Assembly (NCBI GenBank): GCA_944359085.1
Contig: CALVSQ010000001.1
Coordinates: forward strand, 1-62,378
Length of the DNA stretch: 62,378 nt
Direction of reading: 5' to 3'
From: an uncultured Bacilli bacterium
GTDB taxonomy: Bacteria; Bacillota_I; Bacilli_A; RF39; UBA660
This document shows positions 6,401 to 60,019 of this stretch, piece by piece (the first letter of the stretch is position 1; every line of letters starts with the position of its first letter). A program made the position numbers and the translations under genes. Under the pieces are notes generated by a model. The model did not search any database, was not told where the DNA came from, and worked only from the letters and a program-made list of their open reading frames with translations.

Positions 6401-6414
6401 GTAAGGTGAAATGG

Positions 6415-6888: not shown

Positions 6889-6903
6889 AAAGGAGGTTTA
6901 TGT

Positions 6904-7156: not shown

Positions 7157-7169
7157 AAATATTCAGTAT

Positions 7170-7198
7170 TTGACAATACAAGGTAGTTGATATATAAT
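7170..7198 (+). promoter_or_regulatory. sigma-A type promoter of the padR operon
   Basis: TTGACA, 17-nt spacer, TATAAT, about 18 nt upstream of ATG 7216. Confidence 0.55.
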
Positions 7199-7215
7199 TA
7201 TACAAGAGGTGAGAT

Positions 7216-8848: not shown

Positions 8849-8907
8849 AAAGACATATAAAATTTATGTCTTTTTTTAATTATTGTTATGATATAATTAT
8901 TATAGTT

Positions 8908-8983
8908 GCTGGAATAGCTTAGTTGGTAGAGCAACGCATTCGTAACGCGTAGGTCGTAGGTTCGAATCCTATTTCCAGCACCA
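8908..8983 (+). tRNA. tRNA-Thr(CGT), CCA encoded
   Basis: Hand-folded: acceptor GCTGGAA/TTCCAGC, loop TTCGTAA, T-arm GTAGG-TTCGAAT-CCTAT. TATGATATAAT box lies 10 nt upstream. Confidence 0.9.
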
Positions 8984-9001
8984 TTAAAAAGGAGTATGAT
9001 T

Positions 9002-10042
9002 ATGAAGTTAAGATGGGACAGAATTATAGCAGTATTTTTAGTTTTTGTTTTATTAATAGGGGTAGGAGTTTATTTTTTATTTTTTAACAAAGAAGAAGAA
9101 AAACAACTAGAAGAACCAGATAAACAAGAACCAGTAGTAGAAAAAAAATTACAAATTTTAGATTTGGAATCTGATACTAGACCAATTGCAGTTATGATAA
9201 ATAATCATAAGACTGCGCAACCATATCAAACAGGACTAAATGATGCTTATTTAGTTTATGAAATTGTTGTTGAAGGCGGTATTACTAGAATGATGGCAGT
9301 ATTTAAAGATCAAGATACTGCAACAATTGGTACAGTAAGAAGTTCTAGACATTATTTTCTAGATTATGTTCAAGAAAATGATGCTATATATACACATTTT
9401 GGATGGAGTGAAAAAGCTCAACAAGATATAAATGACTTAAATATTGATAATGTAAATGGATTAGTTGATAGTGGTTTTTGGCGTGATCAAGAATTAAGAA
9501 ATAATGGAGTTCCACTTGAACATACTGCTTATACCAATATAGAAAATATTTTAGAAGTAGCAGATAAAAGAGGATATGAAACAACTTCAACTAAAGACAC
9601 ATTATTAAATTATAGTGTTGATGAAATAGATTTATCAACAATGGAAGGTGCCATTAAAGCTGATAATGTATTTATTGAATATTCTAGTTATCAAGAAAAT
9701 ACATTCAAATATGATCCAGTTAATAAAGTATATAACAAATATAGTGGAGATACTTTAAGAAAAGATTATGTAACAGGTGAAGCTTTTAAGGCAAAAAATA
9801 TTATTACATACCAAGTAAATAATTATAGTATGGATAGTTATGGAAGACAAGAAATAGATAATATTGGTAGTGGTGAAGGATATTTCATATCAAATGGTTA
9901 CGCAGTGCCAATTACTTGGGAAAAGGAAAGTCCATCTAGTCAAACAATTTATAAATTTTTAGATGGAAAAGAAATAACTGTTAATGATGGAATTACCTAT
10001 ATTCAAATTCAACCAAAAAATAAAACTTTAGAAATTGAATAA
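9002..10042 (+). CDS. DUF3048 (YerB-like) membrane-anchored protein
   Basis: N-terminal TM, then RPIAVMINNHKTAQPYQTGLNDAYLVYEIVVEGGITRMMAVF, characteristic of DUF3048. Confidence 0.8.
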   Translation: MKLRWDRIIAVFLVFVLLIGVGVYFLFFNKEEEKQLEEPDKQEPVVEKKLQILDLESDTRPIAVMINNHKTAQPYQTGLNDAYLVYEIVVEGGITRMMAVFKDQDTATIGTVRSSRHYFLDYVQENDAIYTHFGWSEKAQQDINDLNIDNVNGLVDSGFWRDQELRNNGVPLEHTAYTNIENILEVADKRGYETTSTKDTLLNYSVDEIDLSTMEGAIKADNVFIEYSSYQENTFKYDPVNKVYNKYSGDTLRKDYVTGEAFKAKNIITYQVNNYSMDSYGRQEIDNIGSGEGYFISNGYAVPITWEKESPSSQTIYKFLDGKEITVNDGITYIQIQPKNKTLEIE

Positions 10043-38310: not shown

Positions 38311-38982
38311 ATGGAGTCAAAAATTTTTAATTGTATATCAACTATTGGTTGTATTATTACAATAATTTTATTATATATTTTTATTATAATTAGTGATAGC
38401 TTTTATTTTAATGGATGTACAATTTTAATGTTCTTGTTGATGCTATTAAATCCTATTGCTAATACATGTAGATTAAATAAAAAAATTATAAATAATCCTA
38501 TATTTCATTTTTTAATTGTCACATTGACTGGTTATACTTCGTATATTTTAATAAATAGTATTATAATATATATTCTAAATAGAAATGAAGAATCGTTAGC
38601 ATATCATATATTTTATGATAGACTTTTATATATTTTTTTATCAATAATTGTTATATTATTGATAACTTTAATATTTAAAAAAATTAATGTAAAGTCTAAT
38701 AAAGATAATTCTAAAATTATGCTTTTAATAATTTTAATAACATCATTAATACCAATATTAACTCATGGTAGTGTGCCATTAATATGTGCAGGATTTAATA
38801 TTGTATTATTTATTTTTACAATAATAACATTTTTTAAATTAAAATTAATTAATACAACAGATGAATTGCGAAGTCATTATTTAATTTTAATAGTTAGTTC
38901 TTTGATATCAATTAATCCAATTGCACTTGTTTTATCTATCTATATGTTTTTACAACAAGATATTTTTGGCCTACATATTTAA
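38311..38982 (+). CDS. hypothetical polytopic membrane protein
   Basis: 223 aa with about 6-7 TM helices. Confidence 0.5.
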   Translation: MESKIFNCISTIGCIITIILLYIFIIISDSFYFNGCTILMFLLMLLNPIANTCRLNKKIINNPIFHFLIVTLTGYTSYILINSIIIYILNRNEESLAYHIFYDRLLYIFLSIIVILLITLIFKKINVKSNKDNSKIMLLIILITSLIPILTHGSVPLICAGFNIVLFIFTIITFFKLKLINTTDELRSHYLILIVSSLISINPIALVLSIYMFLQQDIFGLHI

Positions 38983-39101: not shown

Positions 39102-39791
39102 ATGAAAAAAAATATTCTTATTGTAGAAGATGAAATGGATATAGCAGAATTATTAAAGTTATATTTAGAAAGTGAAGGATTTAATGTAAATATTGCTAGT
39201 GATGGAATAGAAGCAGAAAAATTGATGGACGATAAAAATTTTGATATGGCATTAGTTGATATAATGATGCCCAGAAGGAATGGTTATGATTTAATAAAAA
39301 AGGTCAGAGAATATAATTTAAAACTACCGATTATAGTTTTGTCTGCTAAAAATTTAGATAATGATAAAATAGTTGCATTAAATTTAGGAGCAGATATGTA
39401 TATTACAAAGCCATTTAATCCTTTAGAAGTAGTTGCTAATATAAAAGCTTTGCTTAGAAGATGTTCAGTACTTGGAATCAATAATATTATCAAATACGAT
39501 AATATCGAATTAAACACTAATGAATTTTGGATAAAAAAAGATGAAAAAATAATTAATTTTACAGCTACAGAGTTAAAAATATTAATTAAGTTAATGAGTA
39601 AACCTAATGTAATATTTACAAAGGCACAATTATATGAATGCATAAGTAGTGATAATTTTTTCAATAATGAAAATGCAATGATGGTTCATATATCAAATAT
39701 AAGAGGAAAATTAGAAGATAATCCATCAAATCCAAAATATATAAAAACGGTCAAAGGGCTAGGGTATAAATTTAGTTATGAAAAAAAATAA
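39102..39791 (+). CDS. OmpR/PhoB-family response regulator
   Basis: Receiver domain (ILIVEDE...LVDIMMP...KPF) plus winged-helix output (VKGLGYKF). Confidence 0.9.
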   Translation: MKKNILIVEDEMDIAELLKLYLESEGFNVNIASDGIEAEKLMDDKNFDMALVDIMMPRRNGYDLIKKVREYNLKLPIIVLSAKNLDNDKIVALNLGADMYITKPFNPLEVVANIKALLRRCSVLGINNIIKYDNIELNTNEFWIKKDEKIINFTATELKILIKLMSKPNVIFTKAQLYECISSDNFFNNENAMMVHISNIRGKLEDNPSNPKYIKTVKGLGYKFSYEKK

Positions 39792-41328
39792 AAGTTTTGT
39801 TAATTTTTGTGTCTTTTATTTATCTATTTATTCGTTATTGTTATTTCTTACTTTTATATTAACTAATACATTAATTAATAATAGTATTATTAATGTTTCT
39901 AAAACTTTATATGATTTTATAAAATATGATTATTTATTAAAAGAAGATGAATTTGATAAAATACCAGTAAAAAAATTCAAAAGAAATGAAATTGTTATTT
40001 TTGATGAAAACAAAGAAGTTTTATTCAGTACCAATAATTACGAAGAGGGATTTTTAACTAAAGATGAGTTAATGTTTATTAATGAATATTTTACTGATAC
40101 ATATTTTCTTGTCCAAAGTATTAATAATGACAATTATTTAATTACAGAAAATAATTATAATCAAGAAAACAAACAAACTGAAATATTAAATTATGCTATA
40201 TTAGATTCAAACTATAATATAATAGATGGAAATTTATTTGAAGAAAAAACAAAATTAAGTGAAAAAGAGTTTATATTACTAAAAGAAGGAATGAATGGTA
40301 AAAGTTATGTATCTAAATATTCATATGTAAATAATGAAGGAAAAGAAAGAATATTAGTTTTTTATGAACGATATTTAAGTAATGAAGAATATGAAAAAAT
40401 TACTGACAACATATTATCTAGATGGATTTTTGTAATTCCTATTATATTAGTTTTAAGTGGTATAATAATTATTATATTTTATTACAAAATAAAAAAATCT
40501 ATTAATATTATGAAAAAAAGAATATTAGATGATAATTATGCTTTAAAAAAGAAAAATAATATTCCGATTGAGTTTAATGAATTTTGTATAAAAATTAAGG
40601 ATTTATTAAAAAAATTGGAATTAGAAAAGAAAAAAACAGAAAAAGAAGAAAAACTTCGTCAAAGTATTATTACTAATTTAAGTCATGATATAAAGACTCC
40701 GTTAACAGTTATTCAAGGTTATGCTAAGGCATTTTGTGATGGTGTTGTACCAAAAGATAAAGAGAAAAAATATATGGAAGCTATATATAATAAATCAGTT
40801 ATTTCTACGGAAATTATAAATTCATTATTTCAATATTCACAAATGGAACATGTTGATTTTAAAGCGAATTATGAAAAATCTGATTTTAGTGAATTTTGTC
40901 GCGAATATTTAGCTATTAAATATTCTGATTTAGAAATGTTTAAATATAATTTAACTTTTAAACTAGAAGAAAAAACAATTATGTACAATTTTGATAGATC
41001 TCTTATGACAAGACTTTTTGACAATATAATAAATAATAGTGTAAAACATAATAAGAAAAATACAACAGTTTATTTTATTTATAAAGTTGTTAATAATTGC
41101 ATTATTATTACAATAGCTGATAATGGTAGAGGAATAGTTTCCAAAGATCCAAACGTTTTGTTTACTCCATTTGTAGTAGAAAATGAAGCAAGAACTTGTG
41201 ATTCTAGTACAGGATTGGGATTATATATTGTAAAAAAAATAGTCGAAATGCATAACGGCGAGATAAGTATTAATAAAAATCCTAAAAAACCTTATAAATT
41301 TGAAATAAATATTAAATTTAAATTATAA
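39778..41328 (+). CDS. sensor histidine kinase
   Basis: Two TM segments flank an extracytoplasmic domain. H-box LSHDIKTPL, N-box NNSVKHN, G-boxes DNGRGI and GLGLYIVKK. Confidence 0.85.
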   Translation: MKKNKSFVNFCVFYLSIYSLLLFLTFILTNTLINNSIINVSKTLYDFIKYDYLLKEDEFDKIPVKKFKRNEIVIFDENKEVLFSTNNYEEGFLTKDELMFINEYFTDTYFLVQSINNDNYLITENNYNQENKQTEILNYAILDSNYNIIDGNLFEEKTKLSEKEFILLKEGMNGKSYVSKYSYVNNEGKERILVFYERYLSNEEYEKITDNILSRWIFVIPIILVLSGIIIIIFYYKIKKSINIMKKRILDDNYALKKKNNIPIEFNEFCIKIKDLLKKLELEKKKTEKEEKLRQSIITNLSHDIKTPLTVIQGYAKAFCDGVVPKDKEKKYMEAIYNKSVISTEIINSLFQYSQMEHVDFKANYEKSDFSEFCREYLAIKYSDLEMFKYNLTFKLEEKTIMYNFDRSLMTRLFDNIINNSVKHNKKNTTVYFIYKVVNNCIIITIADNGRGIVSKDPNVLFTPFVVENEARTCDSSTGLGLYIVKKIVEMHNGEISINKNPKKPYKFEINIKFKL

Positions 41329-41407
41329 ATGTATATTAAGAAATCTTAAGACTAAATTTATTTTATCTTAATCTTTCATGTGTATAATCTGTGAATGAGG
41401 TGATGAA

Positions 41408-42922
41408 ATGGATTTAGTTTTTTCGTATTTAGAAGATACATGTATGAAATATAAAGACAAGATTGCAGTTAAATATAAAGATGAATATTTAACTTATAAT
41501 GATTTTTTAACTAATGTTTATGTAGTGGGAACTAATTTATCTAAGGATGTTATAAATAATGAACCTATAGTTGTTTTTATGGATAAAGGGATAAATTCTT
41601 TAGAATCATTTTTTGGAATTTTATATTCTGGTGGATGTTATAGTTTAATTAATCCAGAATTTCCTGATGACCGAATTAAACAAATAAAAGAAGTTTTAAA
41701 AGTAAAAAAAATAATAACTTGTGAAAAATATTATGAACGAGCAATTAATTTATTTAATGATTGTAAGGTTTTTAAAATAGATGAATTGAAAAAAGGAACT
41801 TTTGACATTGATTTGCTTAATAAAATTAAACAAAACAAAATTGATGTTGATCCTGTATATATTAATTTTACATCAGGTTCAACAGGTATTCCTAAAGGAG
41901 TAGTAGTTTCTCATAAATCAATTATTGATTTTATAAATAAGTTTACAAAGTTATTTAATATTACCGATAAAGATATAATAGCAAATCAAGCTCCATTTGA
42001 TTTTGACGTTTCAGTAAAAGACATATATTCATCAATTTTTGTTGGAGCAACATTAGTACTTATTCCTAAAGAATATTTTTCTAATCCAACAATTCTTTTA
42101 GATTATCTTGATAGTAATAATACAACAACAATGATATGGGCAGTTTCAGCTCTATGCTTGATTACTACTTTTCATGGCTTAAATTATAAAGTACCAAATA
42201 AGGTTAATAAAATTATATTTTCAGGAGAAATAATGCCATTGAAACATTTAAGCGTTTGGATGGAAAAATTACCAAATGCGATGTTTGTAAATGTTTATGG
42301 TCCAACGGAAATAACTTGTAATTGTACTTATCATATTATTGATAAAAAAAGATTTTATGTTGACTATATTCCGATTGGAATTGCGTTTTTTAATGAAAGA
42401 GTATTCTTATTAAGTAAAGAAGATAAATTAATAACAAATAACGATGAAATTGGAGAAATCTGTGTTAGTGGGTCTTGTTTAGCGCCAGGATATTATAATA
42501 ATGAAGAACAAAGTAAAAAAAGTTTTGTTCAAAATCCTACTAATAATAATTATTTTGAAAGAATATATCGAACTGGAGATTTAGGTAAATATAATGAAAA
42601 TAATGAATTAATTTTTTGTGGAAGAAAAGATTTTCAAATTAAATATTTAGGGCATCGTATTGAATTAGAAGAAATCGATAGAGCAATAATGAATGTTGAT
42701 GGTATAACTAGAGTTTGTACAATATTTGATGAAGAAAAATCAAAAATATATTCTTTTTATGTAGGAACTTTGGAAACTAAAGATTTAAGAAGTATATTGC
42801 AAGAAAAATTACCAATATATATGATTCCAACTAAGTTTATCAAATTAAATAATTTACCTTTAACAAAAAATGGTAAAATTGATAGAAAAAAATTATTTGA
42901 TTCATATAAAGGGGGAAAATAA
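41408..42922 (+). CDS. DltA-like amino acid--carrier protein ligase (adenylation enzyme)
   Basis: FTSGSTGIPKGV, NQAPFDFDVSVKDIY, YGPTE, YRTGD, GRKDFQIKYLGHRIELEEI, NGKIDRKK. Length (504 aa) equals a typical DltA. Confidence 0.85.
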   Translation: MDLVFSYLEDTCMKYKDKIAVKYKDEYLTYNDFLTNVYVVGTNLSKDVINNEPIVVFMDKGINSLESFFGILYSGGCYSLINPEFPDDRIKQIKEVLKVKKIITCEKYYERAINLFNDCKVFKIDELKKGTFDIDLLNKIKQNKIDVDPVYINFTSGSTGIPKGVVVSHKSIIDFINKFTKLFNITDKDIIANQAPFDFDVSVKDIYSSIFVGATLVLIPKEYFSNPTILLDYLDSNNTTTMIWAVSALCLITTFHGLNYKVPNKVNKIIFSGEIMPLKHLSVWMEKLPNAMFVNVYGPTEITCNCTYHIIDKKRFYVDYIPIGIAFFNERVFLLSKEDKLITNNDEIGEICVSGSCLAPGYYNNEEQSKKSFVQNPTNNNYFERIYRTGDLGKYNENNELIFCGRKDFQIKYLGHRIELEEIDRAIMNVDGITRVCTIFDEEKSKIYSFYVGTLETKDLRSILQEKLPIYMIPTKFIKLNNLPLTKNGKIDRKKLFDSYKGGK

Positions 42923-44091
42923 TGGACTATAGTAAATTATTAAATAAATTTTCAACGCCTATGTATTTATTTGATATAGAATTATTAGAAAAAAGAATTA
43001 AATATATAAAAAGTTGTTTTGATAAAGATATTAAATTTATATATGCAATAAAAGCTAATACATTTATTTTAAAACAAATAGAAGAATTAATTGATGGCTT
43101 TGAAATATGTTCTTTTGGTGAATTTGAAATATGTAATAATTTAAAATTAAATCAAAGTAAGTTTGTTATTTCTGGAGTTAATAAAGATTTTGATTCTATA
43201 AAATATATTTTTGAAAATACAAATAAAGTTGTTAAATTTACTGTTGAATCTATAAATCAATATAAATTGTTAACTGCATTAGCAAAACAATATAATAAAA
43301 AAATAGAGTTATTAATTAGATTAACTTCTGGAAATCAATTTGGAGTTTCAGAAACAGATTTTGAACAAATAATTTCATATAGTAAAAATGAAGAAATGAT
43401 AAAGATAATAGGCATACAATATTTTTCTGGAACTCAAAAAAAATCAGTTAAAAAATTAGAAAAGGAATTGAATTATTTAGAACAATTTATTAATTATATT
43501 GAAGAAAAATATAAAATAATAATAGAAAATCTTGAGTATGGTCCAGGTGCTCCTATTTCATATTTTGTAGGTGAAGAATTCGATGAATTAGAATATTTTA
43601 AAGAGTTAAATAATATGTTAAGTAAAATTAAAAATAGAAAAATATCATTAGAAATAGGGCGGAGTATTGTTGCTTCATGCGGCTTTTATTTAACTAAAGT
43701 AGTTGATATTAAAAGTAATCAAAATGGTAACATACTTTTACTTGATGGAGGTATGAATCATTTAGTATATTATGGACAAACAATGGCCATGAGGATACCT
43801 TATTTAGAACAATACCCTATAAGAAAAGGCGAGGTAAATCATTATACTCTTTATGGTTCATTATGTACTATAAATGACATATTAATAAAAAATTTACCAC
43901 TTGAAGATGTTAAAATTAATGATGTATTTATTTTTAAAAATGTTGGTGCTTATTGTAGTACCGAAGGTATATCTTTGTTTTTAAGTAGAGAATTACCTAA
44001 AATAATATTAAAAGATAAAGATGGAAATTTTAAATTAGTAAGAGATAATATAAAAACAAGTAATTTAAATTTTCCTTATGTAGAGGAGTGA
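42922..44091 (+). CDS. PLP-dependent decarboxylase, Orn/DAP/Arg decarboxylase family 2 (LysA-like fold)
   Basis: TPMYLFD...YAIKAN (PLP-Lys), EYGPGAPISY, GRSIVASCG, LLDGGMNHL, GSLCTINDIL, GAYC. TAATG overlap with the ligase gene. Confidence 0.8.
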   Translation: MDYSKLLNKFSTPMYLFDIELLEKRIKYIKSCFDKDIKFIYAIKANTFILKQIEELIDGFEICSFGEFEICNNLKLNQSKFVISGVNKDFDSIKYIFENTNKVVKFTVESINQYKLLTALAKQYNKKIELLIRLTSGNQFGVSETDFEQIISYSKNEEMIKIIGIQYFSGTQKKSVKKLEKELNYLEQFINYIEEKYKIIIENLEYGPGAPISYFVGEEFDELEYFKELNNMLSKIKNRKISLEIGRSIVASCGFYLTKVVDIKSNQNGNILLLDGGMNHLVYYGQTMAMRIPYLEQYPIRKGEVNHYTLYGSLCTINDILIKNLPLEDVKINDVFIFKNVGAYCSTEGISLFLSRELPKIILKDKDGNFKLVRDNIKTSNLNFPYVEE

Positions 44092-44096
44092 AAATA

Positions 44097-44324
44097 ATGA
44101 ATGAATTAATCGATATATTAGAAGAACTAAAACCAGGTATAAATTATGAAACAACAGAAAATTTAATTGATGGAAGATATTTAGACTCATTAACAATTCT
44201 TTCTTTAATTTCTGAAATTGAAGATGAATTTGATGTTGAAATTCCTGCTGTTGAAATTATTCCTAATAATTTTAATTCTGCAGAAAAAATTTATAATTTA
44301 ATTCAAAAGTTAAAAAATGAATGA
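44097..44324 (+). CDS. acyl/D-alanyl carrier protein (DltC-like)
   Basis: 75 aa with the phosphopantetheine site context RYLDSLTILSLISEIEDEF. Confidence 0.75.
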   Translation: MNELIDILEELKPGINYETTENLIDGRYLDSLTILSLISEIEDEFDVEIPAVEIIPNNFNSAEKIYNLIQKLKNE

Positions 44325-45840
44325 AATTTTTAGTAAATATTACAATTTAATTTTCTTATTAGTTGTTTCTTTTAATAATTTGATTCCTAAAAAAATAAGA
44401 TCAATATTTTATTTAATTATTAGTCTTCTTTTTTTCTATATAATGAGTGGGAAACTAATAATATATTTATTGATAACAATAACAAGTATATATATATCAG
44501 CTTTATTAATAAATAAAGTTGAAGAAAAACAAAATTCATCTAAAAAAATAAAATCATTAATTTTAATTGTTTGTATTTTAATTAATTTAGCATTTTTGAT
44601 AGTATTTAAATATTTAAAATTTTTTACTATAAGTACAAACTCGATATTATCTATTTTGGGAATAAATTTTAGTTTTAATATTTTAAAATTTGTAGCACCA
44701 ATAGGTATATCTTTTTATACACTTCAAGGTTTATCTTATTTATTTGATGTGTATAATAAAAAAATCAAAGCAGAAAAAAATTTTATTAAAGTAGCATTAT
44801 TTATATCTTTCTTCCCACAAATTATGGAAGGGCCTATAGCAAGATATGAAGAAACAAGTAACGAATTATATAAAAATAAAAATTATACATATGATAGCTT
44901 TTGTTTTGGTATGCAAAGAGTAATTTGGGGAATATTTAAAAAAATGGTTATAGCAGATAGGTTAAATATAGTTGTAAAAACTGTATTTAGAGATTATCAA
45001 ATATTTAGTGGACCATTCATTTTTATTGGAGCTATGTGTTTTACAATAATGCTTTATATGGAATTTAGTGGAGCAATGGATGTTGTAATTGGTACAGGAG
45101 AAATAATAGGTGTTAAAATTCCAGAAAATTTTAGACAACCATTTTTTTCTAGAAATATATCAGAGTTTTGGACTAGATGGCATATAAGTTTAGGTAAATG
45201 GTTTAAAAATTATATTTACTTTCCTGTTTCTTTATCAAAACCGGTAAAAAAGATAAATAGTAAAGTAAAAAAAATGTTTGGAAGAAAAGTTAGCACTTTA
45301 GTTAGTAGTGGTATTGCTTTATTTGTTGTTTGGCTATTAAATGGTTTATGGCATGGAGCAGGATTAACTTTTATTTTATTTGGCTTGTATCATTTTATAT
45401 TGATTTTTTTAGGTAATATATTAAAACCATATATTGATAAGAGAATTTCTAAATTTAGTAATAATAAACTATTTAAAGTTTTGCAGAATTTTAAAGTTGC
45501 AATATTAGTTATTATAGGTGAATTAATATTTTGGTCTTTAAATGTTAAAGCATTATTTATTATGTTAAGTAAACTTTTCACTGAATTTACTATTGATAAA
45601 GCTTCATTTGTAAAATTAGGGTTAGATATACCAGACTGTATTATTTTAGTATTATCATTATCAGTTGTATTTATTGTTAGTTTATTAAAAGAAAAAAATA
45701 TTAATGTTAGAGAAGAAATAGCTAAAAAAAATATAATAATTAGATGGTCATTATATTATATTTTAATTTTTAGTATAATTCTTTTTGGAGCTTATGGTCC
45801 AGGATATCAACCAGTTGAACCAATTTATGCAGATTTTTAG
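44317..45840 (+). CDS. MBOAT-family membrane O-acyltransferase (DltB/AlgI-like)
   Basis: ISFYTLQGLSYLFDVY, FWTRWHISLGKWFKNYIYFP, NGLWHG (conserved His). Confidence 0.85.
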   Translation: MNEIFSKYYNLIFLLVVSFNNLIPKKIRSIFYLIISLLFFYIMSGKLIIYLLITITSIYISALLINKVEEKQNSSKKIKSLILIVCILINLAFLIVFKYLKFFTISTNSILSILGINFSFNILKFVAPIGISFYTLQGLSYLFDVYNKKIKAEKNFIKVALFISFFPQIMEGPIARYEETSNELYKNKNYTYDSFCFGMQRVIWGIFKKMVIADRLNIVVKTVFRDYQIFSGPFIFIGAMCFTIMLYMEFSGAMDVVIGTGEIIGVKIPENFRQPFFSRNISEFWTRWHISLGKWFKNYIYFPVSLSKPVKKINSKVKKMFGRKVSTLVSSGIALFVVWLLNGLWHGAGLTFILFGLYHFILIFLGNILKPYIDKRISKFSNNKLFKVLQNFKVAILVIIGELIFWSLNVKALFIMLSKLFTEFTIDKASFVKLGLDIPDCIILVLSLSVVFIVSLLKEKNINVREEIAKKNIIIRWSLYYILIFSIILFGAYGPGYQPVEPIYADF

Positions 45841-45848
45841 GAGGGTAT

Positions 45849-46769
45849 ATGAAAAAAGTATTGAAGATTTTTATGTTTGTTTTGATTTTTGTAATATTAC
45901 TTTTTATATTTTCATATTTACTATCACCTAAATATAATTTAAAAAAATTTGGTTTTGTAAAAAATTCTTTATATAGTATATTAAGTGAAAAGCCTAATAC
46001 AATAGATGTTGTTGCGGTTGGTGATAGTCTTGTCTATTCATCAATTTCACCAATGGAAATATATGGTGAATATGGTTATACTGTTTTTGATTGTTCAAAA
46101 CCAGCTCAGTTAGTAACAGAAGCGTATAATTATTATAAGGTGGCTGTTGAAAGTCAAAAACCTAAAGTAGCCTTTATTGAAGCAAATATATTGTTTAGAA
46201 ATATAAGTAAAACAAATGGTATTAGTAAAACAAGGGATATATTAAAAAGTTCAATTCCTTTGTTTGTTTATCATGACGATTGGAAAAAAATAATAGTCGG
46301 TAATAATGTTGAAAATAATTTAAAAGGTTTTGTTTATAGTAAGAAAATACAATCTGGAACTTTAGAAGAATACATGATAAAAACAGATGAAACAAAAATT
46401 ATTCCCAAGGAAAATTTAGATTATTTAAATAAAATAATTAAATTGTCAAAAGAAAATAATATAAAAATAATATTTGTAGGACTACCTAGTCAAAAATCTT
46501 GGAATTATGAAAAACACAATGCAGTAGAAAAATTGTCTAAAAAATTACAGATTGAATATATTAACTTAAATATGATAGAAGAAGTAGATATTGATTGGCA
46601 AAAAGATACTAGGGATAAAGGGGATCATTTGAATTATTTTGGTGCAAAAAAAGTTTCAAAATATTTAGGTGAATATTTAAAAAAATTAAATATAATTTCT
46701 AGTAAGAAAAACGATTCAAATTATAATGATTGGAATATACTTTATGAAAAATATAAAAATTTAGATTAG
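45849..46769 (+). CDS. membrane-anchored SGNH/DHHW-AlgJ-DltD-like accessory acyl-transfer protein
   Basis: N-terminal TM, AVGDSLVYSS block, C-terminal KGDHLNYFGAKK block resembling DHHW/AlgJ-type motifs. Confidence 0.5.
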   Translation: MKKVLKIFMFVLIFVILLFIFSYLLSPKYNLKKFGFVKNSLYSILSEKPNTIDVVAVGDSLVYSSISPMEIYGEYGYTVFDCSKPAQLVTEAYNYYKVAVESQKPKVAFIEANILFRNISKTNGISKTRDILKSSIPLFVYHDDWKKIIVGNNVENNLKGFVYSKKIQSGTLEEYMIKTDETKIIPKENLDYLNKIIKLSKENNIKIIFVGLPSQKSWNYEKHNAVEKLSKKLQIEYINLNMIEEVDIDWQKDTRDKGDHLNYFGAKKVSKYLGEYLKKLNIISSKKNDSNYNDWNILYEKYKNLD

Positions 46770-47110
46770 TATAATATTACACTGGCGATTGCATATTCTC
46801 CATCGTGAGAAATGGAAACACTTATATTATGATTTAAATTTTTTAATTCATTATGTAATAATATTTCAGGACAATTATTAGAATCGTGTGTTATTTCTAT
46901 ATTTTTTAAGGAACAGTTCTCTATTCCTTTTTTTAATGCTTTTAAAAAAGCTTCTTTAGCGGCAAACATTCCTGCTATAGTGGAATTATTATAATTTCTT
47001 TTTTCTATATAATTTAATTCTCTTTGAGTAAATGTATTACTCATAAAAGTTGTATTGCTTTTTAATTTTTCAAATCTATTAATTTGAATTATATCTATTC
47101 CATTTGTCAT
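46766..47110 (-). CDS. acpS: holo-[acyl-carrier-protein] synthase
   Basis: GIDIIQINRF...FTQRELNY...FAAKEAFLKAL...SISHDGEYA. ATG follows AGGTGA. Confidence 0.85.
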   Translation of the reverse strand: MTNGIDIIQINRFEKLKSNTTFMSNTFTQRELNYIEKRNYNNSTIAGMFAAKEAFLKALKKGIENCSLKNIEITHDSNNCPEILLHNELKNLNHNISVSISHDGEYAIASVILY

Positions 47111-47232
47111 AAAAATCACCTATAAATATTATAATATAAAATTTAATATAAAGAAATATTTATTAATTTATTTAGATGTTTTGTTTGATAGTATAATGTA
47201 TAACAATAAAAAATAGATTTTATTAAATATAG

Positions 47233-49210: not shown

Positions 49211-50428
49211 ATGAAGTGGAATGTAGCAGTATATTTAAGAGTTTCTAAAGAAGTAGATGATTTGTGTGAGACTAACAGTTTAGATAACCAAAAACTGATA
49301 ATTGAAAATTTTGTAAATAACAATCGAGATTTAGTTATTAAAGATTATTATATTGATAATGGATATAGTGGCACAAATATGGAAAGACCTGCATTAGAGC
49401 AAATGATGGGTGATATACATAATGGAAAAATAAATTGTGTAATCGTTAAAGATATGTCTCGATTTGCAAGAAATTATGCATGGTGCCAAATATATTTAGG
49501 AGAACGTTTTCCAAGTAATAACGTAAGATTTATTTCTGTAAATGATAATTTAGATAGTTTAGAAAATCCTAATTATACTGATAAACTGGAATTTGTTTTG
49601 TTAAATCTTGTTTATGAACATTATGCTATTGAAGCTTCTGAAAAAGTAACAACAATAAAAAGAATGCAACAAAAAAACGGAGATTATTTAGGAGTATCTG
49701 CACCATATGGATATATTAAAGATCCAAATGATGGTCATAAAGTTTTAATAGATGATTATGCATCAAAGATAGTAAAACGAATTTTTGATATGTCTTTAGA
49801 GTGCAAGAGTAGAAATGAAATAGCAGATATATTAAATGATGAATGTGTATTACCACCTTCTAAATATAAAGCTGAAATTATTAAAGTAACAAGTTTATCT
49901 ACTAAGATAGCAGAAAAGTGGCAACCAAACATGATTAGAGAAATATTAAAAAATGAATTTTATATTGGTAATATGGCCCAAGGAAAAGTAAGAAAACCTA
50001 CTAGAAGATTAAATAAACTTGTAAAAGTGTCTAAAGATGATTGGATAGTGGTAGAAAATACGCACGAAGCTATCATAGATAAAAATGATTTTGAGACAGT
50101 TCAAAGAATATTAGAATATACTCCAACTATGTTAAATTCTAATGATATTTTATTAAGATATTTGAAATGTCCTAAGTGTGGTAGTAAGTTCTATAAGAGA
50201 AAAACCAAATATAATGAGTATTACTATTGCAATAATTATTATCGAACTAAACAATGTAATAATAGCAACTCAATTGTTAAGTCTATTATAGAAGGAATTG
50301 TTTTAGATGATTTAAAAAGTAGGATGAATAAAGATATAAAAAGATTAACTAATGAAACTGTTGAACAAAATATTAATCAGATTTATGTATATGATAGTGG
50401 TAGAGTGGAAATTGATTATAAAAAATAA
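49211..50428 (+). CDS. serine recombinase (C), 405 aa
   Basis: VAVYLRVSKE...NQ, VKDMSRFARN, recombinase domain, zinc ribbon CPKCG...CNNYYRTKQC. Shorter tail than A and B. Confidence 0.85.
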   Translation: MKWNVAVYLRVSKEVDDLCETNSLDNQKLIIENFVNNNRDLVIKDYYIDNGYSGTNMERPALEQMMGDIHNGKINCVIVKDMSRFARNYAWCQIYLGERFPSNNVRFISVNDNLDSLENPNYTDKLEFVLLNLVYEHYAIEASEKVTTIKRMQQKNGDYLGVSAPYGYIKDPNDGHKVLIDDYASKIVKRIFDMSLECKSRNEIADILNDECVLPPSKYKAEIIKVTSLSTKIAEKWQPNMIREILKNEFYIGNMAQGKVRKPTRRLNKLVKVSKDDWIVVENTHEAIIDKNDFETVQRILEYTPTMLNSNDILLRYLKCPKCGSKFYKRKTKYNEYYYCNNYYRTKQCNNSNSIVKSIIEGIVLDDLKSRMNKDIKRLTNETVEQNINQIYVYDSGRVEIDYKK

Positions 50429-50591
50429 ATAAAAATTTCTTATTTTTATACTTATATATATATTTATAAATATATATATAAATATAATTTTTTTGGTCTG
50501 AAAAAAGTTTAAAAATAACTATTGACTTTTTATTTTTTAGTATATAAAATGGCACTAGTTAGAGCTTTAACTTTAGGGAGGTTTAGAATAT

Positions 50592-51812
50592 ATGCTAATA
50601 GAATATATGGGAAAAAATAATATTGAACGTTTAGCTTTAGTTGGGACGAATTCACAAGGAAAGTCATATACTATTTCTCAAGAATTCAAGGGTGCTATTG
50701 CTAAACAAACAATTCTTGTTGCAAATGAAGTAAAAGCAGATGAAAATTTAAAAAATACTGCGGATTCTTCAACTTTAATTAATTGGCTAAATACGTTGCT
50801 TGATAACACTAATGCAAAAAAAGCCATTCAAGATGAAATTGATAAAATTGATCTTGATTCAATTAATGATGATAGCTTTTTAAGTATCTCTATTAATAAT
50901 AACTTGGATTCATATAAAGATATTGTAAATGCTGAAATAAAAACAGATTCAAACCAATGGAAAAAACCAGGTTCTGGTGAAAGATTTTTGGGGCAATTAT
51001 TATTAATATCAAAAATATTAGAAGATAATCATGCTCAAAGTTATAAATATTTGGTTATCGATGAACCAGAGCAACATTTACATCCTTCTCTTTATATAAA
51101 AGTAGCTAAAATATTAAACAAGATATCTACTCAAGGTATAAAAGTTATTATCGCTTCTCATTCACCTGTAATTACTCAATATTTTATAGAGGAAACAAAT
51201 GAATTATGTAAGGTTATAGATGGAACATGTAACTTTTTACCTAAAATAGATGAATTAATAACATTATCACAAAGTTTTGATTGTTATCAAAAAGAAGAAT
51301 TAAAATTAAAAAGTTATAATTCTATTGAAACTAAATACAGTATGTATTTTAAAAATTTTGTTCTTCCAATAGTTTTAAATTCTTTGTTTTGCAATTGTAT
51401 GATTTTGGGTGAGGGTGCAATGGAAAGAAAAGTATTTGATATCTATTTATTAAAATATGCTTCAACAATGAAGAATAATGATGTTAATTATGCCATAGTG
51501 GATGGCAAAATTTTCTTTCCATTAGTGATTAGTGTTTTGAAGAAAGTTGGTACAAAAGTTATAACAATACATGATTTAGATGATGAGGGTAATCCAGCTC
51601 ATGCGTATTTAAATAGTGTTATTAAAGAATTATCTGATGAAGTTATTGCTTTTAAACCAAAGATTGAAAAATTTTTAGAAATTACTAAAGACATGTGTAA
51701 TGGTAAATATAGAGAGTCTATTATATTGATAAATGAGTTTTATTTAGATGACAATGAAAAACTTAATCTGTTGTTGGAACTAATAGACAAAGCGAGAGAA
51801 AAAATAAATTAA
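50592..51812 (+). CDS. OLD-family ATP-dependent endonuclease (ABC-type ATPase + Toprim), compact 406 aa
   Basis: Walker A GTNSQGKS, Walker B/D-loop YLVIDEPEQHLHP, H-loop ASHSP, Toprim-like ILGEGAMERKVF ... IHDLDDEG. Confidence 0.65.
   Translation: MLIEYMGKNNIERLALVGTNSQGKSYTISQEFKGAIAKQTILVANEVKADENLKNTADSSTLINWLNTLLDNTNAKKAIQDEIDKIDLDSINDDSFLSISINNNLDSYKDIVNAEIKTDSNQWKKPGSGERFLGQLLLISKILEDNHAQSYKYLVIDEPEQHLHPSLYIKVAKILNKISTQGIKVIIASHSPVITQYFIEETNELCKVIDGTCNFLPKIDELITLSQSFDCYQKEELKLKSYNSIETKYSMYFKNFVLPIVLNSLFCNCMILGEGAMERKVFDIYLLKYASTMKNNDVNYAIVDGKIFFPLVISVLKKVGTKVITIHDLDDEGNPAHAYLNSVIKELSDEVIAFKPKIEKFLEITKDMCNGKYRESIILINEFYLDDNEKLNLLLELIDKAREKIN
51789..51810 (+). repeat. 22-nt direct repeat, copy 1 (inside the last codons of the OLD gene)
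   Basis: AAAGCGAGAGAAAAAATAAATT vs AAAGCGAGAGGAAATATAAATT at 51858-51879 (20/22). Confidence 0.8.
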
Positions 51813-55062: not shown

Positions 55063-56055
55063 TCACTTCCTTAGAATCCAAGCATTTGGTAAATATCTTG
55101 GCCCTGTATAATTATATCCACGTGGTTCGTTTATAATTTCATGATTTATTGTTAAAGTAGATGAACCTCCACCATCTAAATTAGCAGCATTATAAGCACC
55201 ATATTTTTCAAATAATGAAATCATATCTTTGATAGAAATTCCAGCACTTCCATTAGCCCCTCTACCATCAATTACTAAAAATAATACTATTCCATCTTTT
55301 CTTTGAGCGATAGATGTCCTATTAGCATATCCCCAACCACCATTACCTGATACTTCAGCAGATTTACCATTAACTATTAAAAAAGGCCCAAATGACATTG
55401 CATCAACAATACCATCTTTAATTGCATCTTCAGCACTTTTAGTAGTTAATACCAATACGCCATCTTTATTAAAACCTATTAATCCTCCACCATGAACATT
55501 AGAAGAACCAATTGATACTATTTTTCCATCTTGAATAGTAGTACCAGCAGGAGATAATACTTTATCATTTACTACAAAACCGCTTGCATTGATTGCTACT
55601 AATGCATCATAATCTTTACTTAACGCATCTAATGTTTGACCACCAGATTTTATATACTTTGAAGTAACAAGATCAATATTAGAGGAATCGTAAATAGCTA
55701 CTAAATAACCACTATAATCTTTTTCATTGATTTCAATTAATTTATATAATGCGTCTTTATCACGTTCTAATATTTGTTGTTCATAAATTGAATCATATTG
55801 ATTTTTTGAATCGTTATCAAAATTTATATCCGAAGCATCAGTATCACTATCAAATTCAGTAATTACATTATTTTTTAATGTTTCTATTATAATTTTATCT
55901 GAATATAATACATTAGCAAAATATTGATGATGTCCTGTTTTTAAAGCTGTTGTAATAAACCAATCTCGAAAATTAGGAATTGGGCCATATATTATAAATA
56001 AAACTATGATAGTTAGTATATCTATGATACTAATTATTATTGTTGATTTCTTCAT
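55063..56055 (-). CDS. phosphodiester glycosidase family (DUF2233) membrane-anchored protein
   Basis: ALVAINASGF, SFGPFLIVNGK, NRTSIAQRKDGIVLFLVIDGR, ANLDGGGSSTL. Confidence 0.75.
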   Translation of the reverse strand: MKKSTIIISIIDILTIIVLFIIYGPIPNFRDWFITTALKTGHHQYFANVLYSDKIIIETLKNNVITEFDSDTDASDINFDNDSKNQYDSIYEQQILERDKDALYKLIEINEKDYSGYLVAIYDSSNIDLVTSKYIKSGGQTLDALSKDYDALVAINASGFVVNDKVLSPAGTTIQDGKIVSIGSSNVHGGGLIGFNKDGVLVLTTKSAEDAIKDGIVDAMSFGPFLIVNGKSAEVSGNGGWGYANRTSIAQRKDGIVLFLVIDGRGANGSAGISIKDMISLFEKYGAYNAANLDGGGSSTLTINHEIINEPRGYNYTGPRYLPNAWILRK

Positions 56056-57058: not shown

Positions 57059-57172
57059 ATTTTAACTCCTTCATACAATGTCATCATTATATCAAATTTG
57101 TTACAAATAGACAATCATGTATTGTCTAGTAATTATTTATGTGATATTATATAGATAATGTAGGTGGTCCTA

Positions 57173-60019
57173 ATGTTTGAAAAAGATAAATTAAAAGAAA
57201 ATACGATATTTATTATTGTTTTAATTGGGATTATTTTAGTTCTTACTATAATTGATATTTTTATTAATAATAAAGATGATATTTTTACATCTTTAACTGA
57301 TGATAAAATAAATATAAAACAATTAGTAATAAACGAAATAATGACTTCTAATAAGGGAGCTTATACTGATTTAAATGGTAATACTTATGATTGGATAGAA
57401 TTATATAATGGCTATAATGAAGATATTAATTTAGCTAATTATACATTAAGTGATGAAGAATCAGGTAAAACAAAATGGATATTTCCAAATGTGACAATTA
57501 AAAGTAAAGAATATTTGATTGTTTATTTATCAGGAACTAATGATGAAGGAATGTACGCTAATTTCTCATTAAAAAAAGAAGGTGGCGAATTAGTAACTTT
57601 AAAAAAGCCTAATGGTAAAGTAGTTGATTCTGTTAGAACGGAAAGTTTAGAAAAAAATACTACTATGGCAAGAGATAGCCAAGGTAACTGGGTTAAAACA
57701 AATGAAGTCACACCTTGTTTTGATAATAATAAAGAGGGAAGAAATAAATATTTAGAATCATTAAAAAATACAGAAGATTATTTAATTATTAATGAATTTT
57801 TACCAAATAATAAAGGTAATTATAATGTAAATGGTGAATTTTTATCTTATATTGAAGTAAAAAATACAAGTAGTGAAACAATTAATCTACATGATTATTT
57901 TTTATCAGATGATGTATTAGAACCATTTTCTTGGCGTCTACCAGATGTTGAATTAAAAAGTAACGAAGTATATTTATTTTATACAACTGAATTAGATAAT
58001 GCTAATAATACTGATTTTAAATTAAATAAAAGTTCAGGGACTATAATTTTATCTAAAAAAAATAAAATAGTTGAACAAGTTGATTATAATAATGTAACAG
58101 GTGGTTATGCTTATATAAAATCTAATGGAACTTTTTATGAAGGAATAAATATAAGTCCAGGTTATGATGATATAGAACAATTTAATAAAAATGAAAGAAA
58201 AAATCCAAATGATTTAATTATAAATGAAGTTATGTCAAGTAATAATACTTATCTACCACAAAATGGTGGCAATTATTATGATTGGATTGAATTATATAAT
58301 AACAGTGATGAAACAATTAATTTAAGTGATTATACAATAACAACTGATGTTGATAATGTTAATTTGTATAAATTAGAAGATAAAGAATTAAAACCTGGTG
58401 AATATTATATTTTAATGGCTTCTGGTAATGTTAATAATAGTAATAGTAATTATAAACATACTAACTTTAAAATTTCACCAACTGAAAGTTTATATTTATA
58501 CAAAAATGGTAATTTAGTCGATTCAATTTTTATTTCTAGTATTCCTAAAGGATATAGTTATGGTAGAAATGAAGATAATGGACATTATTATTTTAAAACT
58601 CCAACACCTGGTAAAAATAATAGTTCTGGTATTAGTGCAATAGCTTATACCCCAACTTTTAATACTAAACCGGGAATATACAATGATATTGACAAATTAA
58701 CAGTAGAAATAAATGGTTCTGGGACTATATATTATACTTTAGATGGAAGTGAGCCAACTACTAATTCTAAAGTATATGATAGTCCTATTGTTTTATCTGA
58801 AACTACTGTTGTTAGGATCATAAATTATGAAGAAAATAAAAAAACGAGTGAAGTTGTAACAGCTTCTTACATTATTAATGAAAATCATACTTTGCCTGTG
58901 TTATCGATTGGAATGGCTCCTAATGATTTTAATCGTGTTTTAAATGCTGGAGGATCAAATTTAACATTACCTGCTCATGCAGAATTATTTGAAAGTGATG
59001 GTAGTTTTACTATTGATTGTGGATTCAAATTATTTGGTGGAAGTAGTAGATATATAAATAAAAAAAGTTTCTCTTTAAAATTTTCTTCAAAATATGGTAA
59101 TTCATCATTAGAATATAAAGTTTTTGATAATAGAGAAGCTACAAATTATAAATCATTAGTAATTAGAAGTGGATCACAAGATAGCCAATTTTCAATGATA
59201 AGAGATGAGTTAGCTACTTCAATTATGGATGATTATGGAACAGTTGATGTTCAAGCATATAAACCAGTTATTTTATATGTTAATGGTGGTTACTGGGGAA
59301 TATATTATTTAAGAGAAAAAGTAGATGAAGATTTTATTCAAAATCATTATAATGTTGATGGTAGTTATTCTAATATTATAAGAATTGATGGTGAAGTAAA
59401 ATATGGAACTAGAGATTTTTATAATGAATTAATTAACTTTGTTAAATATAATGATATATCTAATACTACTAATTATAATAAAGTAAAAGAAATGTTAGAT
59501 ATTGAAAATTATATAGATTATTGGATAGGAGAATTATATACAACTAATAATGATATTGTTAATCAAAGATATTTTAATAATACATTATTAGATAATGGTA
59601 AAATAAAAATGGTTTTCTATGATTTTGATTATGCATTTTATAATCAAAGATTTAATTATTTAAACTGGATGATTGATCCAAGCGGTATGAGTGAATATCA
59701 TTATGATAATACATTATTAATTAAATTATTACAAAATAAAGAATTTAGACAATTATTTTTAGAAAGAGCTTCTTATAACATGAATAATGTTTGGACAGAT
59801 GAAAATGTATTAAATAGATTTAATGAATTAAAAAAAATAATTGAACCTGAAATGCCACGTAATCAAGAAAGATGGGGTTATACTATGTCTACTTGGTATA
59901 GTGAACTTGATAAGTTAGAAAAATATATTAAAGAAAGAAGAAGTTATATGTTAAATAGTATTAAGTGGTATTTTGGCCTATCAAGTAAGGAGATGGAAAA
60001 ATATTTTGAAGATGTATAG
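57173..60019 (+). CDS. CotH-kinase family protein with three lamin-tail (LTD) repeats
   Basis: Three repeats of the INE..(S/P)NN...Y(D)WIELYN type, GTIYYTLDGSEPT module, then CotH blocks SFSLKF, LRSGSQD, RDELA, ILYVNGGYWGIYYLREKVDEDF. Confidence 0.85.
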   Translation: MFEKDKLKENTIFIIVLIGIILVLTIIDIFINNKDDIFTSLTDDKINIKQLVINEIMTSNKGAYTDLNGNTYDWIELYNGYNEDINLANYTLSDEESGKTKWIFPNVTIKSKEYLIVYLSGTNDEGMYANFSLKKEGGELVTLKKPNGKVVDSVRTESLEKNTTMARDSQGNWVKTNEVTPCFDNNKEGRNKYLESLKNTEDYLIINEFLPNNKGNYNVNGEFLSYIEVKNTSSETINLHDYFLSDDVLEPFSWRLPDVELKSNEVYLFYTTELDNANNTDFKLNKSSGTIILSKKNKIVEQVDYNNVTGGYAYIKSNGTFYEGINISPGYDDIEQFNKNERKNPNDLIINEVMSSNNTYLPQNGGNYYDWIELYNNSDETINLSDYTITTDVDNVNLYKLEDKELKPGEYYILMASGNVNNSNSNYKHTNFKISPTESLYLYKNGNLVDSIFISSIPKGYSYGRNEDNGHYYFKTPTPGKNNSSGISAIAYTPTFNTKPGIYNDIDKLTVEINGSGTIYYTLDGSEPTTNSKVYDSPIVLSETTVVRIINYEENKKTSEVVTASYIINENHTLPVLSIGMAPNDFNRVLNAGGSNLTLPAHAELFESDGSFTIDCGFKLFGGSSRYINKKSFSLKFSSKYGNSSLEYKVFDNREATNYKSLVIRSGSQDSQFSMIRDELATSIMDDYGTVDVQAYKPVILYVNGGYWGIYYLREKVDEDFIQNHYNVDGSYSNIIRIDGEVKYGTRDFYNELINFVKYNDISNTTNYNKVKEMLDIENYIDYWIGELYTTNNDIVNQRYFNNTLLDNGKIKMVFYDFDYAFYNQRFNYLNWMIDPSGMSEYHYDNTLLIKLLQNKEFRQLFLERASYNMNNVWTDENVLNRFNELKKIIEPEMPRNQERWGYTMSTWYSELDKLEKYIKERRSYMLNSIKWYFGLSSKEMEKYFEDV

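Follow-up and report, generated by a model that had tools for sequence, protein, structure and literature searches.

Charge-modifying decorations of teichoic acids and wall polysaccharides govern cationic-peptide resistance, autolysin activity, cation binding and host immune recognition and, to our knowledge, D-alanylation by the Dlt system is the only envelope decoration of this kind known to depend on a carrier protein. In that system the FXYXXF acyl-shuttle hexapeptide, the tyrosine of which, as experiments have shown, relays the acyl group to the SGNH protein, is borne by the DltX microprotein; in PatA and other MBOATs that use acetyl-CoA it is fused to the enzyme through two extra C-terminal helices, and MBOAT/SGNH pathways other than Dlt are stated to be without carrier protein (PMC12148441). 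Decarboxylation of tethered amino acids is known from other pathways. BtrK decarboxylates Glu-S-BtrI, and belongs with SbnH, AcsE, FigC and MccE to a group of alanine-racemase-fold decarboxylases that shares an ancestor with the diaminopimelate (DAP) decarboxylases and takes as substrates amino acids that bear a bulky conjugate at their distal end (PMC7857480). In the vicenistatin pathway VinN charges the stand-alone acyl carrier protein (ACP) VinL with 3-methylaspartate and the pyridoxal phosphate (PLP) enzyme VinO decarboxylates the ACP-bound form, the thioester being required first, and in the fluvirucin pathway FlvN loads Asp and the starter unit is beta-alanine (PMC11284099). In this work we analysed a stretch of 62,378 nucleotides from an uncultured Bacilli bacterium of the RF39 lineage (GenBank assembly GCA_944359085.1, contig CALVSQ010000001.1, positions 1 to 62,378 of the forward strand, hereafter the window), which carries a cassette of five genes encoding, in this order, a stand-alone adenylation ligase, a PLP decarboxylase, a phosphopantetheine (Ppant) carrier protein, an MBOAT and a membrane-anchored SGNH-fold protein. 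We think it rather likely that this operon encodes a carrier-dependent pathway which places an amino-acyl group on an extracytoplasmic envelope polymer, after on-carrier decarboxylation of Asp, Glu or DAP.

The arrangement of these genes is conserved far beyond chance. We assembled 86 loci, 80 from a scan of species-representative genomes made with the decarboxylase only and 6 from exact-protein look-ups, and compared their neighbourhoods by tblastn and by clustering of their 1211 open reading frames (ORFs). The decarboxylases of the retrieved loci share 39–61% identity. The ligase gene is directly upstream of the decarboxylase gene in all 86 loci, and the carrier gene is directly downstream of it wherever the contig continues, with the single exception of locus L071. 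An MBOAT gene is present in 67 loci and an SGNH-type fifth gene in 52. Clustering of the ORFs revealed no recurrent accessory enzyme (racemase, mutase, protecting ligase or glycosyltransferase); only the five genes, acpS and an occasional two-component system recur. The hosts are gut and rumen Bacilli (Erysipelotrichaceae-like, 'Candidatus Coprovivens'), Clostridia, Oscillospiraceae, Lachnospiraceae and Ruminococcus bromii, and at least 80 species-level genomes of gut Firmicutes carry the cassette, among them those of cultured R. bromii and Lachnospiraceae. The ligase–decarboxylase–carrier trio is the conserved core and the MBOAT/SGNH pair a usual but non-obligatory neighbour, because the genomes of the Lachnospira group have the trio by itself, with unrelated genes on either side. 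Since the ligase–decarboxylase–carrier order is kept even where there is no adjacent MBOAT gene, the decarboxylase is tied to the loading module and not to general metabolism. The initial annotation of the window had also pointed to an OmpR/histidine kinase pair directly upstream of the cassette and to acpS, in convergent orientation, downstream of it. Both are present in the window, but neither holds as a general feature: a convergent downstream acpS was found in 33 loci, all in the low-GC Bacilli clade, and a response regulator/histidine kinase pair adjoins the cassette in only 5–6 of the 86.

The initial annotation had described the decarboxylase as LysA-fold and had likened its possible role to that of BtrK; our comparisons separate it from housekeeping LysA and support the likeness to BtrK. 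The protein reaches 167.1 bits with the LysA model TIGR01048, its top NCBIfam match by score, against a cut-off of 297.9. Among solved structures it is closest to BtrK (105.6 bits), an entry annotated 'L-glutamyl-[BtrI acyl-carrier protein] decarboxylase', followed by SbnH (87.5 bits), the best DAP decarboxylase (83.1 bits) and E. coli LysA (31 bits); it is closer to BtrK and SbnH than to DAP decarboxylases by a modest margin in pairwise bit scores. SbnH, the second-best solved relative, decarboxylates a citryl-conjugated amino acid. We aligned 80 family members with E. coli LysA (NC_000913.3), a second DAP decarboxylase, BtrK and SbnH. Residues K44 (the PLP lysine), G209, E244, R247, C315 (the proton donor), D319 and Y344 are invariant in the 80 homologues. 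At the position of LysA E343, next to the catalytic cysteine, a threonine is present in 80/80 sequences (Thr316 in the window protein), as it is in BtrK and SbnH, and the RPxxY motif of LysA is replaced by a family-invariant YYGQTMAM. E343, R307 and Y311 of E. coli LysA are DAP-binding residues in the UniProt/HAMAP annotation. The C-terminal motif is FLSR, compared with FLSH in SbnH, FLGH in BtrK and NYNSR in LysA. Judged by these motifs and scores the decarboxylase is not a LysA; it fits the BtrK/SbnH group, whose substrates are conjugated amino acids, and appears to be capable of catalysis.

The second line of evidence comes from the ligase. DltA models are its top NCBIfam matches, at scores under their cut-offs (303.7 versus 476 for NF003417, 286 versus 559.85 for TIGR01734), and its best PDB matches are LgrA, TycA, GrsA and DltA; DltA aligns over the full length at about E 1e-59, and LgrA better still. 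The beta-aminoacyl-ACP synthetases (7dq5, 5jjq, 5jjp) match the C-terminal two thirds only (E 1e-43 to 1e-40), and by this comparison the ligase is not a beta-amino-acid-selective enzyme of the VinN type. Specificity residues (the Stachelhaus positions, 235–331) were read from an alignment in which GrsA-PheA and two DltA proteins served as anchors, the fragments used having been verified in PDB entries 1AMU, 3E7W and 3DHV; for GrsA the extraction returned the textbook code DAWTIAAIC. The code of DltA from B. subtilis and B. cereus is DLMT[M/L]CTVA, that of the cassette ligase family (78 sequences) is DVK[I/T][I/L]S[V/L]CN, and that of the window ligase is DVKIISVCN(K). Seven of the ten code positions (D235, V236, K239, S301, C330, N331 and K517) are invariant across the 78 sequences, which are 46–100% identical, and the code differs from that of D-Ala DltA at eight of nine variable positions. 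The pocket therefore offers no match to D-Ala-specific DltA, the comparison for which the initial annotation had called. Because the code is near-invariant and unlike that of DltA, the whole family, including the ligases of the Lachnospira group, is predicted to activate one and the same substrate, and one other than D-alanine. The invariant Lys239 in the side-chain pocket suggests that this substrate is acidic and keeps a second carboxylate, in which case loading followed by decarboxylation would fit better than the reverse order.

Two further loci were met in the ligase searches. The best plasmid or chromid match of the ligase (36% identity) is in Paenibacillus cellulosilyticus (L090, NZ_CP054613.1, 7965–10585), in a record with almost no annotation; behind the ligase homologue come two ORFs, of 270 aa and of 76 aa, the second of carrier size, and there is no decarboxylase; this locus may represent a different carrier-dependent pathway. 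A Bacillus cereus gene annotated 'dltA, D-alanine--poly(phosphoribitol) ligase subunit 1' (L091, CP009368.1) is a giant non-ribosomal peptide synthetase (NRPS) gene of about 14.9 kb; it was rejected as an authentic DltA reference, and such a misannotation is a trap when dlt genes are mined.

The strongest competitor of on-carrier decarboxylation is a scheme in which the decarboxylase acts on the free amino acid, converting Asp to beta-alanine, Glu to 4-aminobutyrate (GABA) or DAP to Lys, and the product is then loaded and exported as in the Dlt system. The canonical Dlt substrate also comes from a fold-type III PLP enzyme, alanine racemase; the catalytic set of the decarboxylase is complete, and tight gene linkage would equally be expected of a dedicated supply enzyme. 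Nevertheless, the scheme appears unlikely: Lys239 suggests that the amino acid reaching the ligase still has its extra carboxylate, the nearest characterised relatives, BtrK and SbnH, use conjugated and not free amino acids, and the LysA residues that bind the distal end of the free substrate are lost. In addition, the documented adenylation/ACP/decarboxylase modules need the thioester before decarboxylation (PMC11284099).

The operon was first described as dlt-like, and this description stands for the half that would prepare the donor, with its DltA-like ligase and DltC-like carrier. The best PDB matches of the carrier are DltC proteins, aligned over the full length (E 8e-08), its scores with the DltC models being under the cut-offs (36.8 versus 68 for PRK05087, 20 versus 52.35 for TIGR01688), and the Ppant serine, within an LDSL motif, is invariant in 55 homologues. 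The description has to be qualified for the membrane half, which resembles PatA and AlgI. The MBOAT scores 158 with the LTA_dltB model TIGR04091, for a cut-off of 375. In the PDB it matches only DltB (64 bits, with both histidines aligned), but it is closer to generic AlgI/PatA-like MBOATs (about 150–230 bits) and is about 100 aa longer than DltB. His289, in an RWH motif, and His346, in a WHG motif, are conserved in 64 homologues. In 64/64 family MBOATs the exact C-terminus is [P/F][I/M]YxxF, the first position being Pro in 53, Phe in 10 and Ser in one; the window protein ends in PIYADF, which makes Tyr504 the shuttle-type tyrosine. On these features the MBOAT is a long PatA/AlgI-type enzyme with a fused shuttle motif and not a DltB orthologue, and should need no DltX; the 79-nt gap upstream of the ligase gene leaves no room for a dltX gene. 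The fifth protein has no Pfam match even at E=10, DltD included. An AlphaFold2 model built on 49 homologues (pLDDT 90.8, pTM 0.89) was matched by Foldseek to TesA and GDSL lipases (E 1e-6), to PatB (E 9e-5) and to DltD (E 1.2e-3, rank 48), and the protein has an N-terminal transmembrane helix and invariant residues G58-D59-S60, D256 and H260. It is predicted to be a membrane-anchored SGNH-fold transferase, the functional counterpart of DltD and PatB. It had been labelled 'SGNH/DHHW-like': the fold and the membrane anchor are retained, while the DHHW part finds no Pfam support at E=10. Residues 141–146 form a conserved stretch (Y-H-N/D-N/D-W-K-K, with H142, W145 and K146 invariant) in a lower-confidence region of the model, which may be the source of that label.

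In the Lachnospira/Eubacterium group (L067, L080, L077 and L066; ~6400–9700) the trio, with an identical specificity code, has no adjacent MBOAT or SGNH gene and is surrounded by genes for adenylosuccinate synthetase, a FliD_C-like protein, a SEC-C-motif protein, a methyltransferase and Hsp33. In these genomes the transferase may be encoded elsewhere, or the product may have another destination. Such trios, together with the fact that load-and-decarboxylate logic also serves natural-product pathways, give some ground to the idea that what the module yields is diffusible or bound to lipid; it could be a small metabolite, or an aminoacylated glycolipid of the kind known from AlmEFG. We consider this improbable overall, as the trio is in one operon with an MBOAT gene in the window and in 67/86 loci, and as the succession of a shuttle-motif MBOAT and a membrane-anchored SGNH protein, found in 52 loci, is an architecture known only from the acylation of extracytoplasmic polymers; a product of that sort is possible for genomes that have the trio only, and unlikely for the tightly packed unit of the window. 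In two Lachnospiraceae-type isolates genes for envelope polymers lie beside the cassette, namely an ABC-2 exporter pair, a GT2 glycosyltransferase and an NDP-hexose 2,3-dehydratase in L062 (9499–15605), and an LtaS-like sulfatase-family protein and a LicC/LicA-like nucleotidyltransferase-kinase in L064 (12936–16428), and these are hints at the nature of the acceptor.

Two other explanations dispense with decarboxylation on the carrier and fare less well. It is very improbable that the PLP enzyme is a racemase or epimerase, an Alr analogue that would provide a D-aminoacyl group for a modification resembling D-alanylation: its fold is that of alanine racemase, DltA is the closest named family of the ligase, and the Ala_racemase_N domain is matched weakly above threshold (29.7 versus 24.1 bits), but the two decarboxylase domains of Pfam give better scores (55.7 and 47.5 bits), the family has an invariant decarboxylase-type Cys loop (C315) and an invariant Asp319, the protein as a whole aligns with decarboxylases, and the ligase code departs from that of D-Ala DltA at eight of nine variable positions. 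The ordinary reading, a housekeeping LysA inside a canonical dltABCD D-alanylation operon, is effectively excluded, for although lysA is the top NCBIfam match (167 bits), one public source names a homologue 'diaminopimelate decarboxylase' and the window holds no separate lysA or other dlt genes, the score is under the lysA cut-off and only 31 bits are reached with E. coli LysA, 80/80 homologues have Thr in place of Glu343 and lack RPxxY, the DltA, DltB and DltC equivalog models are all under cut-off, the ligase code differs, the MBOAT has a fused shuttle motif in place of DltX, and in 86 loci from several orders the gene keeps its place between those of the ligase and the carrier.

We therefore favour loading, decarboxylation on the carrier and export, the succession already put forward in the initial annotation and now supported computationally by the properties of the decarboxylase, by the ligase pocket and by the literature on related modules. 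In the pathway that we propose, AcpS would first convert the carrier to its holo form. The ligase would then adenylate an amino acid with a second carboxylate and thioesterify it to the Ppant arm of the carrier; this chemistry is established for the family, and Lys239 points to three candidates, L-Asp activated at the beta-carboxyl group, L-Glu at the gamma-carboxyl group, and meso-DAP at one of its alpha-carboxyl groups. The BtrK-like decarboxylase would remove the free alpha-carboxyl group to give a beta-alanyl-, 4-aminobutyryl- or lysyl-S-carrier, a step, and a timing, that we infer from homology and gene linkage. By analogy with the mechanisms of PatA/PatB and DltB/DltX/DltD, the MBOAT, using His346, would move the acyl group through the membrane onto its own Tyr504 in the PIYADF motif, and the SGNH protein would take it on Ser60 and esterify a teichoic-acid-like or polysaccharide acceptor. 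Roughly ranked, a beta-alanyl group is the leading, still tentative, candidate for the product, followed by a lysyl group, which is possible, then by a 4-aminobutyryl group, which is doubtful, and last by any other group, which seems unlikely. What counts against the 4-aminobutyryl group is the ready lactamisation of gamma-aminoacyl thioesters that are left unprotected, for which reason butirosin biosynthesis uses a gamma-glutamyl protecting group; no enzyme for such protection is encoded in the cassette.

Several points weigh against this pathway. Its support is computational. The likeness of the decarboxylase to BtrK is modest (about 105 bits), and two features of the enzyme are unusual: the PLP-stacking histidine is Phe or Tyr in the family (BtrK also has Tyr there), and the GGG phosphate loop is GPG in the window protein. 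The role of Lys239 as a carboxylate binder is our assumption, drawn from the code DAKDLGVVDK of Glu-activating NRPS domains, where Lys239 binds the gamma-carboxylate; no confirmation of that code was found in the literature searched. The ligase keeps the canonical Asp235 and resembles DltA and NRPS enzymes more than VinN, so that homology does not by itself indicate activation of a side-chain carboxyl. Finally, the trios that have no adjacent MBOAT gene in the Lachnospira group mean that the product may have other destinations. Extended to the other hosts, the proposal is evenly balanced: many gut Bacillota (Erysipelotrichales-like Bacilli, Oscillospirales, Lachnospiraceae and R. bromii) could carry an undescribed beta-alanyl, 4-aminobutyryl or lysyl ester on a wall or membrane glycopolymer, made by on-carrier decarboxylation and exported by a hybrid of a Dlt donor and a PatA-type MBOAT.

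The features of the operon and its surroundings are listed in Table 1. All eight ORFs of the initial annotation were recovered at their positions, with Pfam and NCBIfam assignments that agree with its domain content. The seven genes from the response regulator to the SGNH protein are on the same strand and tightly packed, with acpS convergent at the 3' side. The histidine kinase gene overlaps the response regulator gene by 14 nt. The coupling of the ligase and decarboxylase genes noted earlier was confirmed by direct reading: their junction is TAATG, behind a GGGGG ribosome-binding site, and the decarboxylase gene is translationally coupled to the ligase gene through it. A GAGGAG ribosome-binding site, also read directly, precedes the ATG at 44097, which is most likely the start of the carrier gene and gives 75 aa as in homologues. 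The carrier and MBOAT genes overlap by 8 nt, and the SGNH and acpS genes by 4 nt; the ATG at 47110 is likely to be the acpS start. The window is a complete public contig, and its GC content is about 23% throughout. A search for paralogues of the decarboxylase, the ligase and the MBOAT found no second copy in the 62,378 nt, and no public names were found for the proteins of the window.

Table 1. Coordinates of the cassette and of adjoining features in the window, with the basis of each assignment.
Feature	Coordinates	Strand	Basis
Response regulator, OmpR/VanR-like	39102..39791	+	Pfam Response_reg + Trans_reg_C; top NCBIfam match is the VanR family, under cut-off
Sensor histidine kinase	39778..41328	+	Pfam HisKA + HATPase_c; hydropathy profile
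Putative regulated promoter of the biosynthetic genes	41343..41388	+	Read from the sequence
Stand-alone adenylation ligase, DltA/NRPS A-domain type	41408..42922	+	Pfam AMP-binding; specificity code DVKIISVCNK
Fold-type III (alanine-racemase-fold) PLP decarboxylase, BtrK/SbnH type	42922..44091	+	Pfam Orn_Arg_deC_N + Orn_DAP_Arg_deC
Phosphopantetheine carrier, DltC-like, 75 aa	44097..44324	+	Pfam PP-binding; alternative GTG start at 44088
Long-form MBOAT acyltransferase, 507 aa	44317..45840	+	Pfam MBOAT
MBOAT C-terminal acyl-shuttle hexapeptide, P-I-Y504-A-D-F	45820..45837	+	Family motif match
Membrane-anchored SGNH-fold protein (predicted), 306 aa	45849..46769	+	No Pfam match; AlphaFold2 and Foldseek
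AcpS, holo-(acyl carrier protein) synthase	46766..47119	-	Pfam ACPS; TIGR00516, 76.4 versus cut-off 59.8

In this genome the operon is probably activated by the two-component system. The histidine kinase and ligase genes are 79 nt apart, and this gap contains a perfect TATAAT at 41383–41388 with no -35 hexamer, and a direct repeat, ATCTTAAGA (41343–41351) and ATCTTAATC (41365–41373), spaced 22 bp, extends into the -35 position. A direct repeat that replaces the -35 element is the usual layout of promoters activated by OmpR/PhoB-type regulators. A TTAAG[GA] box is present upstream of the ligase gene in all five inspected loci linked to a two-component system, the window and L019, L057, L046 and L059, the distance to the ligase gene being 60–110 nt in the last four; this TTAAGR box was not seen in the four loci inspected that have no two-component system. 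The box, or the direct repeat, is suggestive of a response-regulator binding site, a tentative assignment in DNA this AT-rich, and activation would go through the direct-repeat box at -35. There is no sign of a riboswitch or T-box leader, Rfam at gathering thresholds having given only tRNAs in the window and 16 related loci. A generic scan for sigma-70 promoters and terminators was set aside as uninformative in DNA of 22% GC (86 sites for 96 expected). The histidine kinase has two hydrophobic segments in its hydropathy profile, at about residues 6–33 and 211–240, with an extracytoplasmic domain of some 175 aa between them. The gene directly upstream of the two-component system encodes a 223-aa multi-pass membrane protein without Pfam match (38311–38982).

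Elsewhere in the window, a large serine recombinase with Resolvase, Recombinase and Zn ribbon domains (49211–50428) is followed by an OLD-family-like ATPase/TOPRIM nuclease (50592–51812); the two (49211–51812) lie just downstream of tmk and of a gene of the UDG family, and may make up a small mobile or defence element that has integrated there. A 951-aa protein with Lamin Tail Domains, Fn3_assoc/CHB_HEX_C and a CotH kinase domain (57164–60019) and, near it on the opposite strand, an NAGPA-type phosphodiester glycosidase (55063–56055) are both surface- or glycan-related.

The initial annotation had left room for a published account of the five-gene arrangement, but no description of it was found in the literature searched; matches on C. 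beijerinckii, Dechloromonas and C. cellulovorans were rejected as coincidental. The components belong to known superfamilies and each step has a precedent, whereas the combination of Dlt-like loading, BtrK/VinO-like decarboxylation and a PatA-like fused shuttle appears to be undescribed. If our proposal is right, this would be the first MBOAT–SGNH system other than Dlt to be fed by a carrier protein, and PLP decarboxylation on a carrier would have its first example in primary, non-antibiotic metabolism. The ester would be chemically different, without the alpha-ammonium group or with a second amine, and should differ in lability and charge.

Among known systems with a ligase and a PLP enzyme encoded together, one comparison is with the exosortase-A-associated families TIGR03098 and TIGR03099, an AMP-forming ligase and a DAP-decarboxylase-like PLP enzyme found side by side in exopolysaccharide loci. 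These are, however, proteobacterial and labelled as hypothetical equivalogs without known function, and the window ligase and decarboxylase score far under their cut-offs (180.5 versus 592.35 and 144.1 versus 478.45, respectively); we know of no MBOAT/SGNH partner in those systems. The butirosin enzymes BtrI, BtrJ and BtrK share with the cassette a fold-type III decarboxylase that acts on a carrier-thioesterified amino acid, with a Cys-Thr loop where LysA has Cys-Glu. In contrast, BtrJ belongs to the ATP-grasp ligases and is not an adenylation enzyme, the butirosin product is gamma-glutamyl-protected and ends up on an aminoglycoside instead of the cell surface, and the likeness to BtrK is remote (about 105 bits). 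The VinN/VinL/VinO and FlvN/FlvL/FlvO modules follow the same logic, with an adenylation enzyme, a stand-alone carrier and a PLP decarboxylase encoded together, but there a further aminoacylation protects the product, which then enters a polyketide synthase, while the cassette ligase is nearer to DltA and NRPS enzymes. Because this ligase is not of the VinN type, the resemblance looks like a convergence of logic and not like family membership.

For the membrane half the nearest parallels are the O-acetyltransferase pairs PatA/PatB and AlgI/AlgJ, which likewise have a long MBOAT with an invariant histidine and a C-terminal xxYxxF, and an SGNH partner with Ser and His. Those pairs take acetyl from acetyl-CoA without carrier (PMC12148441), whereas the cassette has a ligase, a carrier and a decarboxylase; since these dedicated enzymes supply the donor, the acyl group should be amino-acyl and not acetyl. 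For the donor half the parallel is Dlt D-alanylation, which also relies on a stand-alone ligase, a small Ppant carrier (DltC being the nearest to that of the cassette), priming by AcpS, and export by an MBOAT and a membrane-anchored SGNH protein. The cassette departs from Dlt in having a decarboxylase gene between the ligase and carrier genes, a ligase code unlike that of DltA with all Dlt equivalog models under cut-off, an MBOAT longer by about 100 aa with a fused tyrosine motif in place of the separate DltX microprotein, and a 306-aa SGNH protein without DltD Pfam match. Its composition, a Dlt-type donor half joined to what appears to be a PatA-type acceptor half, would make it an exception to the carrier-less rule, contradicting the generalisation drawn for non-Dlt MBOAT–SGNH pathways (PMC12148441) and providing a naturally occurring case on which the preference of MBOATs for CoA or for carrier-protein donors could be studied.

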